From contig OY761556.1 in the NCBI GenBank assembly GCA_963664705.1, positions 5,184,001-5,248,000 of the forward strand: a DNA stretch of 64,000 nucleotides, given 5' to 3'. The notes under the pieces were generated by a model, which was given only the letters and a program-made list of their open reading frames with translations, was not told the DNA's origin and did not search any database. The DNA comes from Acidobacteriota bacterium (GTDB lineage Bacteria > Acidobacteriota > UBA6911). Position numbers and translations under genes: made by a program. This document shows, in pieces, positions 9,387 through 54,254 of the stretch; position 1 is the stretch's first letter, and every line of letters starts with the position of its first letter.

Positions 9387-11129
9387 CCGGCTTGACCGAT
9401 CAATGGCGTTGGTTAGTTTTTGGATTTGAACCGCGAAGACCTCGAAGACCGCAAAGCAAGATTTTTGGGCTTATTTTGCTGCCGGTGGCAGATGGAGTCC
9501 AGCGTATGCTCCCGCGAGAATGATACGCGCAAAGCCTACAAATATATTTTCTTCGCGGTCTTCGCGGTCTTTGCGGTCTTTGCGGTCTTTGCGGTCTTCG
9601 CGGTTATCGAAAGCTCTTTCATCGTGTCTGCACGATCCAGCGGTATCCATTCCTGCAACTTGGCCGGCTTGACCGATCAATGGCATTGGTTAGTTTTTGG
9701 ATTTGAATCGCGAAGACCGCAAAGCAAGATTTTTGGGCTTATTTTGCTGCCAGTGGCAGATGGAGTCCAGCGTATGCTCCCGCGAGAATGATACGCGCAA
9801 AGCCTACAAACATATTTTCTTCGCGGTCTTTGCGGTCTTCGCGGTTATCGAAAGCTCTTTCATCGTGTCTGCACGATCCAGCGGTATCCATTCCTGCAAC
9901 TTGGCCGGCTTGACCGATCAATGGCGTTGGTTAGTTTTTGGATTTGAACCGCGAAGACCTCGAAGACCGCAAAGCAAGATTTTTGGGCTCATTGTGCTGC
10001 CGGTGGCAGATGGGGTCCAGCGTATGCTCCGGCGAGAATGATACGCGCAAAGCCTACAAATATATTTTCTTCGCGGTCTTTGCGGTCTTTGCGGTTATCG
10101 GAAGCTCTTTCATCGTGTCTGCACGATCCAGCGGTATCCATTCCTGCAACTTGGCCGGCTTGACCGATCAATGGCGTTGGTTAGTTTTTGGATTTGAATC
10201 GCGAAGACCTCGAAGACCGCAAAGCAAGATTTTTGGGCTCATTGTGCTGCCGGTGGCAGATGGAGTCCAGCGTATGCTCCCGCGAGAATGATACGCGCAA
10301 AGCCTACAAATATATTTTCTTCGCGGTCTTTGCGGTCTTCGCGGTTATCGAAAGCTCTTTCATCGTGTCTGCACGATCCAGCGGTATCCATTCCTGCAAC
10401 TTGGCCGGCTTGACCGATCAATGGCGTTGGTTAGTTTTTGGATTTGAATCGCGAAGACCTCGAAGACCGCAAAGCAAGATTTTTGGGCTTATTTTGCTGC
10501 CAGTGGCAGATGGAGTCCAGCGTATGCTCCCGCGAGAATGATACGCGCAAAGCCTACAAACATATTTTCTTCGCGGTCTTTGCGGTCTTCGCGGTTATCG
10601 AAAGCTCTTTCATCGTGTCTGCACGATCCAGCGGTATCCATTCCTGCAACTTGGCCGGCTTGACCGATCAATGGCGTTGGTTAGTTTTTGGATTTGAATC
10701 GCGAAGACCTCGAAGACCGCAAAGCAAGATTTTTGGGCTTATTTTGCTGCCGGTGGCAGATGGAGTCCAGCGTATGCTCCCGCGAGAATGATACGCGCAA
10801 AGCCTACAAATATATTTTCTTCGCGGTCTTTGCGGTCTTCGCGGTTATCGAAAGCTCTTTCATCGTGTCTACTCGATCCAGCGGTATCCATTCCTGCAAC
10901 TTGGCCGGCTTGACCGATCAATGGCGTTGGTTAGTTTTTGGATTTGAATCGCGAAGACCTCGAAGACCGCAACGTAAGTTTTTTGGGCTCATTTTGCTGC
11001 CGGTGGCAGATGGAGTCCAGCGTATGCTCCGGCGAGAATGATACGCGCAAAGCCTACAAACATATTTTCTTCGCGGTCTTTGCGGTCTTCGCGGTTATCG
11101 GAAGCTCTTTCATCGTGTCTGCACGATCC
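9387..11129. repeat. Tandem array of 7 ~250-bp units, each a GxxExxY-derived miniature element with 9-mer-built inverted repeats
   Basis: Unit starts 9387, 9664, 9905, 10155, 10405, 10655, 10905 (277, 241, 250, 250, 250, 250 and 225 bp partial). Each has ccgcgaagacctcgaagaccgcaaag-type left arm and (ctt[c/t]gcggt)n right arm; homologous to 53440-53740. Confidence 0.97.
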
Positions 11130-51689: not shown

Positions 51690-53339
51690 ATGGACTCCAC
51701 ACCCAGAATCAAAGCGCCTCGCGGCAACCAACTCCAATGCAAAGGATGGCAGCAGGAAGCTGCCATGCGGATGCTGATGAACAATCTGGACGAAGAGGTG
51801 GCAGAGCGTCCTCAGGACCTTGTAGTCTATGGTGGCAGCGGCAAAGCTGCGCGCAACTGGAGCTGTTACTCATCCATCATTCGCTCTTTGCAGCAGCTGG
51901 AAAATGATGAGACCCTTCTGGTCCAATCCGGCAAACCCGTCGGCATATTCCGGACACACGAGTATTCCCCGCGAGTGCTGATCGCCAACTCAAACCTGGT
52001 AGGCCGCTGGGCAGACTGGGAGGAGTTCCGCCGCCTGGAAGCCCTGGGGTTAATGATGTATGGGCAGATGACCGCAGGCAGCTGGATTTATATCGGCAGC
52101 CAGGGGATTGTGCAGGGGACCTATGAAACTTTCGCTGCAGCGGCTCGCCGTCACTTTGCAGGAACGCTGCAAGGCAGGATCCTGGTATCCGGCGGATTGG
52201 GCGGCATGGGAGGAGCTCAGCCCCTAGCGGCCACCATGGCCGGCGCTGCTTTTCTGGGCATAGAAGTGGATCCGGCCCGAATTCAGAAACGAATCCAAAC
52301 GGGATACTGCGACAGGATAAGCTTCAGTCTCGAAGAAGCGCTCGCACTTGTAGAACAGGCCGCCGCCGGAAAAAAGCCCCTCTCGGTGGGACTGGTTGGA
52401 AACTGCGCGGAAGTACTTCCCGAACTTGTGCGGCGCGGTTTTGTCCCGGACCTCCTGACCGATCAGACCAGTGCGCATGATCCACTTAACGGGTACATAC
52501 CCGCGGGGATCTCATTAACCGACGCGGAAGCCCTGCGACGCGATAATCCCGGCGAATACCTTCAACGCAGCATGGCATCCATCGCCACGCATGTACGTGC
52601 CATGCTGGAGCTGCAGGCAAAGGGAGCCATTACCTTCGACTATGGAAACAACCTTCGCGGGCAGGCTTTGAAAGCGGGCGTGGCAAACGCCCTTGATTTT
52701 CCCGGCTTTGTGCCGGCATATATTCGCCCGCTGTTTTGTGAAGGACGCGGTCCTTTTCGATGGGTCGCGCTCTCGGGCGATCCGGAGGATATTGCTCTTA
52801 CCGATGCGCTGGTTCTGGAGATGTTCTCAGAAAACGAAGAACTGTGCCGATGGATCCGGATGGCAAAGGCGAGGATTCGCTTTCAGGGTTTGCCCGCACG
52901 CATCTGCTGGCTGGGCTACGGCGAGCGGGCTGCCCTGGCTCTCCGGATGAATGATCTGGTTGCCGGCGGCAAACTGCATGCGCCCATCGTCATCGGTCGC
53001 GATCACCTGGATTGCGGTTCCGTGGCGTCGCCTTACCGTGAGACGGAAGGCATGAAGGATACGTCCGACGCGGTCGCCGACTGGCCGATCCTGAATGCAT
53101 TGTTAAACACAGCAAGCGGCGCATCCTGGGTTTCATTTCATCATGGCGGCGGAGTTGGAATGGGGTATTCTCTCCATGCAGGACAGGTCACTGTGGCCGA
53201 TGGCACAAACGCCATGCGGGACAGGATTGAACGGGTGATGACGAATGATCCCGGGATCGGTGTCGCTCGCCACGCGGATGCGGGGTATGAGGAGGCTCAG
53301 GAATTCGCCAGAATCCGAGGCATCAGAATTCCAGGCTGA
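51690..53339 (+). CDS. hutU: Urocanate hydratase
   Basis: [43 protein letters not shown]; SD GGAGG. Confidence 0.97.
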
Positions 53340-53357
53340 GAGCCCTCTCGCTTTATA

Positions 53358-53762
53358 GCACCGGACTTGCCCGGCTTTTGGGGAGATCTGAATATCCGGC
53401 AAAAATGTGGGCTAATTTGATCAAATCAGGTTCCATAAATAAATGGCGTGATTAGTTTTTATATTTGAACCGCGAAGACCTCGAAGACCGCAAAGATTTT
53501 TTGGCTCATTTTGCTGCTGGGCAATGAGCTAGTGTGATGGATAGGAAAGAAGTTGCTCATCATATCGTCGATTCAGCGGTGGCAATCCATACAGCGCCAG
53601 GATTGTTGGAGTCCGTTTATCAGCGGTGCTTAATGTGTGGAGCATCATGGATGGAATCCACCGTATGATCTGGCGAGAACGATAACCGTAAAACCTGCAA
53701 AATATTTTCTTTGCGGTCTTCGAGGTCTTCGCGGTTAATGGGGTTACTATTCGGTCAAGTCA
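53358..53762 (+). mobile_element. Putative non-autonomous GxxExxY-derived element
   Basis: Insert between the direct repeats; perfect 29-bp IR 53468-53496/53708-53736; homologous to the 9387-11129 units. Confidence 0.75.
53537..53685 (+). pseudogene. Internally deleted GxxExxY protein gene
   Basis: Manual translation MDRKEVAHHIVDSAVAIHTAPGLLESVYQRCL (GLLESVY = GxxExxY), joined out of frame to MDGIHRMIWRER* (family C-terminal DGIxR motif); central nuclease region absent. Confidence 0.88.
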
Positions 53763-53876
53763 GATGCGGGGTATGAGGAGGCTCAGGAATTCGCCGGAAT
53801 CCGAGGCATCAGAATTCCAGGCTGAGAGCCCTCTCGCTTTATATCAGCCAATTCAAACAGGACTCACGAAACTGAA

Positions 53877-54254
53877 ATGATCTATTCGCGCAAAGAGGCA
53901 CGTCGCATTTTGCTGGCGCTTCGTGCAGAAATGCTTGTTTATCTGCAGACTCGTGAGGATGAAACGCACTTCTGCCGACGCTGCCTTCTGCCTCTGCCCG
54001 AAGGCGCATACGATGCCTACGATTTCTGTCCGTGGTGCTCCAAGTCGCAGGGTGGCATGGAACCCCGCCTGGACGAATCACGAAAGATTATTGAAAGCGA
54101 AGAGCTGGAACGGCGGATTGAGATTCAATGCGGGGAATGCGGAGCGGAGTACGAACAACCCGCCCGCTATCCCTACAAGTTTTGCCCGGTCTGTGGAGCT
54201 CCCTTCGCGGCCGAAGACGAAATCATCATCGAGCTCCCCTGGCTTGTATCCTGA
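53877..54254 (+). CDS. Double zinc-ribbon hypothetical protein
   Basis: Four CxxC pairs: CRRC, CPWC, CGEC, CPVC. Confidence 0.75.
   Translation: MIYSRKEARRILLALRAEMLVYLQTREDETHFCRRCLLPLPEGAYDAYDFCPWCSKSQGGMEPRLDESRKIIESEELERRIEIQCGECGAEYEQPARYPYKFCPVCGAPFAAEDEIIIELPWLVS

Follow-up and report, generated by a model that had tools for sequence, protein, structure and literature searches.

The window analysed here is a 64,000-nt stretch of the genome of an Acidobacteriota bacterium (contig OY761556.1, positions 5,184,001 to 5,248,000), and the element under study is an insert of about 403 nt (53361-53763/4) located downstream of the urocanate hydratase gene hutU. The edges of this insert are terminal repeats of the IS1634 type, and its interior holds two inverted arms with the remains of a GxxExxY gene between them. 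Hereafter, G000 designates the source genome, other G labels the genomes of relatives, and L labels the loci surveyed. The features of the locus, in window coordinates, are as follows.

51690..53339, + strand: hutU, urocanate hydratase, an intact host gene (ORF; TIGR01228, 925.8 bits)
53277..53360, + strand: left copy of a long direct repeat, the inferred target duplication, made of 63 nt of the hutU 3' end plus 21 nt
within 53277..53360, + strand: the last 63 nt of hutU, inside the left copy of the duplication (84-nt repeat scan)
53361..53374, + strand: degenerate IS1634-type left terminal repeat, 12/14 identical to the left end of the IS at G000:6057793
53361..53430, + strand: shortened copy of a 116-117-bp IS1634 mini-element (alignments with the G034, G005 and G000 mini-elements)
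53431..53467, + strand: conserved spacer from the inner IS end to the left arm, common to other copies
53468..53496, + strand: left arm of the GxxExxY cassette, built from three 9-nt units and 2 additional nt (25 exact genome matches, both strands)
53537..53635, + strand: 5' remnant of the GxxExxY gene, codons 1-35 minus two (HMM and alignment to the intact paralogue)
53642..53685, + strand: 3' remnant of the same GxxExxY gene (nt 338-380 of its 381), in a frame other than that of the 5' piece
53708..53736, - strand: right arm of the GxxExxY cassette (inverted-repeat scan)
53737..53764, - strand: IS1634-type right end of about 28 nt, terminal repeat plus subterminal motif (13/14 terminal bases as in the intact IS)
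53763..53846, + strand: second (right) copy of the direct repeat, with a length of 82 bp should the IS end be placed at 53764

The two 29-nt arms are 100% complementary and 211 nt apart, as the first-pass annotation had reported, and when the 403-nt insert was shuffled 300 times by mononucleotide, the longest perfect inverted match reached 20 nt, self-palindromes included. Folding of the insert as DNA gave a z-score of -7.85, with equal stability in 0/100 shuffles. The arms had been taken for the ends of the element. This assignment did not hold, as the boundaries were located at the IS1634-family terminal repeats, 107 bp beyond the left arm and 27-28 bp beyond the right arm. The left terminal repeat (53361-53374) is flush with the left copy of an 84-nt direct repeat (53277-53360 and 53763-53846, two mismatches), which measures 82-84 bp depending on whether the last base of the right IS end is 53763 or 53764. 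Neither the outer IS-type ends nor this direct repeat figured in the first-pass annotation. In the mini-element (53361-53430), the left end is followed by an internal deletion and then by an inner right-end-like copy (53404-53430). Six-frame translation of the insert yielded no transposase gene, the GxxExxY fragments alone being found. No Rfam match was obtained for window positions 53200-53950 at E up to 1, the promoter and terminator scans each returned 0, and no RNA dataset with this sequence was present among the sequencing runs listed. On the far side of the duplication, a 125-aa ORF (window 53877-54254) encodes two zinc-ribbon-like motifs (PF12773, 27.1 bits, just below the cut-off); it adjoins purB in G007 and G009 too.

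Of a GxxExxY gene of 381 nt, the sequence between the arms retains nt 1-105 and nt 338-380. The 5' peptide, starting from the ATG at 53537, matched both TIGR04256 (E 5.5e-4; 20.3 bits against a cut-off of 35) and PF13366 (18.8 bits against a cut-off of 22), and is identical to the intact paralogue at 29/35 positions. The proposed GxxExxY remnant is confirmed, albeit with sub-threshold profile scores, but the direct jump from one fragment to the other is not, the two gene pieces being out of frame: the ORF from 53537 continues to ...QRCLMCGASWMESTV*, and MDGIHRMIWRER* at 53647-53685 belongs to another frame, its M aligning with a K of the intact gene. The deleted segment contains D67, E77 and K79, which are invariant in 20 aligned family members. 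The genome search suggested by the first-pass annotation did uncover an intact gene with the same arm family, at G000:2163560-2163940. Its product scored 135.2 and 125.7 bits with the GxxExxY / PDDEXK_3 models, over the curated cut-off, and its structure was predicted with a pLDDT of 95. The model resembles restriction-endonuclease-like folds, Cas4 and Hjc, with middling scores (top Z 8.3 and 8.0; best rmsd 3.3, 100 aligned), and Foldseek returned nothing at E up to 0.001 (best E 0.018). The paralogue is described here as a predicted PD-(D/E)XK fold with the D...ExK residues, and fold similarity suggests a nuclease role. The arm-flanked gene, by virtue of its TIGR04256/PF13366 membership and predicted fold, is not an HUH (Y1) transposase. 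Both the remnant and the intact paralogue belong to the GxxExxY / PDDEXK_3 family (TIGR04256, PF13366), for which a table row in PMC3424549 gives the function as 'Unknown' and notes multiple transfers; in the literature consulted, neither inverted arms beside these genes nor their capture by IS ends came up, and PMC8934634 mentions GxxExxY incidentally.

The 29-mer arm has 25 exact matches in G000, on both strands, and the arm pattern forms 86 arrays in 29 clusters (loci), in agreement with the earlier view of a non-autonomous, internally deleted, multicopy derivative. Once one unorientable locus was dropped, an IS right end was present at 18/28 loci and not recognisable at 10/28. Sequence likeness among copies ends sharply 27-30 nt past the right arm; on the left, the stop points vary. 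One deletion junction, read by eye, is common to 11/23 aligned deleted units, indicating that it was the already deleted form that multiplied. At several of its loci, G000 has tandem arrays of element plus flank. The genome also contains three intact GxxExxY genes, each within its own inverted arms, so that a gene flanked by its own repeat family coexists with gene-less copies elsewhere. The two G000 arm families devoid of IS ends number 12 and 5 clusters (up to 5 mismatches), mostly single arms. Separately, tandem units of about 250 bp with the same arm family and no IS right end occupy window 9429-11096 (G000:5193429-5195096), and at G000:4472226-4473165 (L001) an intact GxxExxY gene of the second arm family is followed by two internally deleted tandem copies with arms, again with no IS ends.

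PF13366 is present in 88/251 genomes of the phylum. We surveyed 66 GxxExxY loci, of which 58 have a near-full gene and 56 enough flank (including 2 duplicates); the survey is almost wholly composed of Acidobacteriota, with 30 loci of the phylum that were taken by best score and not drawn at random. Inverted arms surround the GxxExxY gene at 51/56 loci, compared with 1/100 shifted controls. The notion of GxxExxY genes bracketed by 9-mer inverted repeats was hence half right: inverted arms are general, but they differ by clade, and a period of 9 on both sides occurs in 13/56 loci, in the window's family only. IS1634 ends appear in only 3 rows of the 56-locus survey. We regard the arms as being associated with GxxExxY genes, and the mobility of the cassette itself as putative. 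At one locus (L028 on contig C9 of G014, L037 on contig C142 of G002) the cassette lies in opposite orientations, with collinear flanks at 82-87% identity, the inverted cassette at 72% and no IS ends seen; this difference reflects either an inversion between the arms or an independent insertion. A cassette of the third family is syntenic in G000, G014 and G002 (L003, L040 and L043), which shows that some cassettes are vertically inherited within the genus. Neither the arms of GxxExxY genes nor their capture by IS1634 ends turned up in the literature searched, which did not extend to ISfinder, supplements or subscription journals, where IS1634 MITEs may be described.

Searching G000 with the terminal motif of the copies identified an intact 1642-bp IS at G000:6057793-6059434 (L048), with a 490-aa transposase ORF. 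The transposase scored 325.8 bits with NF033559 (IS1634 family; cut-off 100); its residues D170, D248 and E401 are invariant among 10 homologues, and it carries a G188R change at a nearly invariant position. Among the BLAST matches listed, the last 26-28 nt of this IS are 92-100% identical to the tag outside the right arm, and its terminal repeats agree with those of the window insert at 12/14 positions on the left and 13/14 on the right. The left end of L048 is 72-73% identical to the mini-IS part of the composites, and the mini-IS part of the G034 composite is 88% identical to the left end of another autonomous IS, L098; the true mobiliser may be a relative that is now lost or unassembled. 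A 13-nt motif occurs at IS positions 90 and 1615, and the 116-117-bp mini-IS is thus explicable as a deletion product. Two stand-alone two-ended mini-IS were recognised in G000, against 18 arm loci with an IS right end. One mini-IS without GxxExxY DNA, at G000:2537516-2537631, displays a flush 48-bp repeat, and long flush repeats accompany 1/4 stand-alone mini-IS copies. A heptamer run lies inside the duplication beside this mini-IS; genome-wide, G000 has 295 sites with 7-nt periodicity, far above periods 8-12. The 14-bp flanks of L048, the sole intact IS1634-family copy, are an inverted and not a direct repeat, and IS copies related to it often have TAGAA/TAGTA upstream and TTCTA/TATTA-like letters downstream. 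At the thresholds used, the transposase query had no match in 29 other genomes of the genus, including fragmented ones that bear composites, nor in 400 genomes of the phylum.

The IS right end was detected in 8/137 genomes of the class, all within this genus. Contig C52 of G034 carries the full composite, with an arm on either side of an intact 126-aa gene, a left end and mini-IS before the first arm, a right end after the second, and a 52-bp repeat; the window insert aligns with it end to end, with deletions. Among the two-ended composites of relatives, 5/8 show repeats of 36-61 bp that lie at the IS ends. Five near-identical proteins of the window arm family form one clade (100/99 support), a group of near-copies that we defined ourselves and in which two members lack an IS end over a distance of 220 nt; sister to it is a gene whose arms are similar and which has no IS end close by. 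This pattern fits a presumed single capture of a pre-existing GxxExxY cassette in this genus. In the comparison of hutU loci advised by the first-pass annotation, the element was not found after hutU in G005, G006 and G010, but these belong to other species of the genus. At the hutU-purB junction of G006 (contig C30, L220), a solitary arm, similar to the third arm family of GxxExxY, was noticed by eye inside another inverted repeat. A 151-nt record from another study (run X6, record 30) matches the hutU 3' end over window 53233-53360 with 3 differences, the match stopping at 53360, the exact left boundary of the insert, with 23 letters of the record beyond it; it may represent an empty allele. 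A contig bridging 53328-53478 possibly stems from the source sample and hence is not independent.

We then considered the long duplications. At 9/18 right-end loci of G000, a 50-121-bp direct repeat starts 0-1 base outside the IS right end, a tenth locus having a 12-bp repeat, whereas 0/150 random sites passed a looser repeat test. The left terminal repeat is flush with the duplication at 2/9 of these repeat-flanked loci, and the other 7/9 have no flush left end; repeats abut both IS ends in the window copy and at G000:6229768. Flanking repeats of 24-66 bp were also seen at 3/10 loci with no recognisable IS right end, that of the intact gene among them. Six of the nine duplications overlap an ORF end (ORFs of 100 codons or more), a count of ORFs rather than gene calls that has no control. 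For autonomous relatives, 80 metagenome loci gave 63 with both ends and 42 flanked on each side by 60 nt or more. A long flush repeat was present in 3/42 of these and in 1/6 plasmid copies with ends found (8 fetched), 4/48 in total (L111, 56 bp; L157, 58-59 bp; L179, 56 bp; L148, at least 87 bp). Chimeric assembly may account for part of the low metagenome figure, not for the plasmids. Site-specific integration with attL/attR at the hutU 3' end was rejected, since both the host DNA duplicated and its length differ by locus and the 84-mer matches solely its partner in the genome. A long duplication as a general trait of GxxExxY cassettes was not supported either: among 52 intact loci, 10 scored for a flanking repeat, comprising 7 cassette or arm repeats, 1 case of paralogous-looking host genes, 1 IS composite and L066, so that duplicated host DNA was read at 2/52 loci, one being the IS composite. 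In L066 (G217, contig C12), an intact cassette is accompanied by a 98-bp duplication of an apparent host gene start, with no IS1634-type end.

Taken together, these data lead us to propose, with a probability of roughly 0.74, that the insert is a non-autonomous IS1634-ended element with a deleted GxxExxY cargo, which an IS1634-family DDE transposase acting in trans inserted behind hutU, producing the 82-84-bp duplication. The element has IS-type ends, a flush duplication, an intact matching IS in the same genome, a composite with an intact gene in a relative and a deletion shared among copies, and from these we infer the action of the transposase and the order of events. A deletion between the 13-nt motif copies at IS positions 90 and 1615 would have generated the 116-117-bp mini-IS; one mini-IS and a second right end would then have bracketed an arm-flanked GxxExxY gene, once, in this genus. 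The resulting composite would transpose by its outer ends. As these would join the target at points separated by tens of bases, the end of a gene like hutU would stay intact. The nuclease core, and often the left end too, would subsequently decay by deletion, and recombination between the long repeats would give rise to tandem arrays. Because the boundaries and the duplication lie at the IS ends, the likely mobiliser of the window copy is an IS1634-family DDE transposase and not the nuclease, which is likely a passenger in this element.

The first-pass annotation had favoured the opposite, namely that the arm-bounded unit is the element, moved in trans by the intact GxxExxY nuclease, the IS ends being incidental. 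An intact gene with the same arms does exist in the genome, its product has a predicted PD-(D/E)XK-like fold (pLDDT 95, Z 8.3) with D67, E77 and K79 invariant in 20 sequences, arms flank 51/56 genes, the G014/G002 cassette is inverted at one locus without IS ends, and 10/28 arm loci are without a recognisable IS right end. However, no target duplication is found at the arms, that of the window abutting the IS ends 107 and 27-28 bp outward; a flanking repeat of host DNA occurs in 2/52 intact loci, one being an IS composite; and the IS-ended arm family has reached 29 loci, compared with 12 and 5 clusters for the families without IS ends. We consider mobilisation by the nuclease quite improbable. 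A later local duplication, by slippage or recombination beside a hairpin-forming insert, would account for the tandem arrays of element and flank at several loci and for the partial tandem copies beside intact cassettes without IS ends (L001, L002 and L032). Slippage would not, however, target the IS end, from which the repeats start 0-1 base away at 9 G000 loci, and in two-ended copies the repeats also end at, or at most 5 bases from, the left terminal repeat, which makes this origin of the long repeat very improbable indeed.

The rarity of long repeats in autonomous copies, the missing flush left ends and the repeats at loci without a right end nevertheless leave room for a hybrid mechanism. 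In such a scheme, the transposase would join the right IS end only, and the other junction and the duplication would arise by template switching after a nick, or the stalling of a fork, at the hairpin arms; the intact GxxExxY nuclease could be the nicker, and the cassette an active helper. Right ends are indeed fixed and left ends variable, with 7/9 repeat-flanked G000 loci lacking a left terminal repeat flush with the duplication, composites have long repeats more often (9/18 in G000, 5/8 two-ended ones in relatives) than autonomous copies (4/48) or plain mini-IS (1/4), and G000 has 18 right-end arm loci for 2 recognised stand-alone two-ended mini-IS. Yet repeats abut both IS ends in the window copy, in G000:6229768 and in five composites of relatives, long flush repeats also flank autonomous IS copies and one arm-less plain mini-IS, and left truncation is explained by post-insertion deletion, with no need for a new mechanism. 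We therefore judge one-ended joining unlikely and retain transposition in trans by an IS1634-family transposase as the preferred explanation.

Several known systems resemble this element. A 2008 review (PMC2266710) reports long variable direct repeats of 8-514 bp for IS1549 and IS1634, 5-6-bp duplications for most IS1634-family members and no mechanistic model for the long repeats. The transposase here belongs to the same family (NF033559), the 36-121-bp repeats of the window family fall within the range given, as does the 1642-bp autonomous IS within 1500-2000 bp. Unlike IS1549 and IS1634, the window element has no transposase, carries foreign cargo and resides in an Acidobacteriota bacterium, and most related autonomous copies, resident L048 included, have no long repeat. 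IS1634 and MITEs in Microcystis are the subject of PMC11448079. The element shares with MICs and IS-derived MITEs (PMC3129680, PMC3184786) the absence of its own transposase, IS ends in common with a resident intact IS, a target duplication, multiple copies, passenger DNA and a stable hairpin, but it differs in being three-ended (mini-IS plus second right end), in its duplication of 82-84 bp instead of a few bases and in its cargo, itself a nuclease cassette bounded by inverted repeats. Restriction-modification genes with inverted repeats, as described in PMC2853133, likewise combine a nuclease-fold gene between imperfect inverted repeats with long variable duplications, and movement by a transposase in trans was left open there; unlike them, the present element has no methyltransferase, its arms are tandem short units and IS1634 ends explain its boundaries. 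The REP/REPIN and RAYT system offers a model for the GxxExxY cassette, with a single gene amid its own repeat family and gene-less copies elsewhere, but RAYT is an HUH tyrosine transposase, whereas GxxExxY has a predicted PD-(D/E)XK fold for which the arms are a candidate substrate. With shared ends, no transposase, a flush duplication and dispersed copies, the window element has, at the level of sequence, the testable hallmarks of a MITE or MIC, and our preferred reading is a miniature transposon that carries cargo, which is a known class. What is new is its three IS ends, its very long duplication and a cargo that is an inverted-repeat cassette.

This family offers a naturally occurring set of duplications, 36-121 bp long and placed to the nearest base at IS1634-type ends, on a short element and with an intact transposase gene in the same genome. 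The long repeats let the element land in gene ends like that of hutU without breaking them. Its cargo belongs to a widespread kind of unit, a gene plus inverted arms, for which we found no description, the arms being the obvious candidate substrate for the predicted nuclease. A bolder proposal, which we put forward tentatively and regard as doubtful but possible, is that GxxExxY genes with their clade-specific arms constitute an undescribed selfish analogue of REP/RAYT, in which a PD-(D/E)XK nuclease nicks its own hairpin arms, and that fusion with IS1634 ends here created a hybrid that out-spreads either parent, in which the arms or the nuclease contribute to fixing the variable left junction and the long duplication. 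If this were true, a single 400-700-bp substrate would suffice to test what GxxExxY does and how the unexplained long repeats of IS1549 and IS1634 arise.
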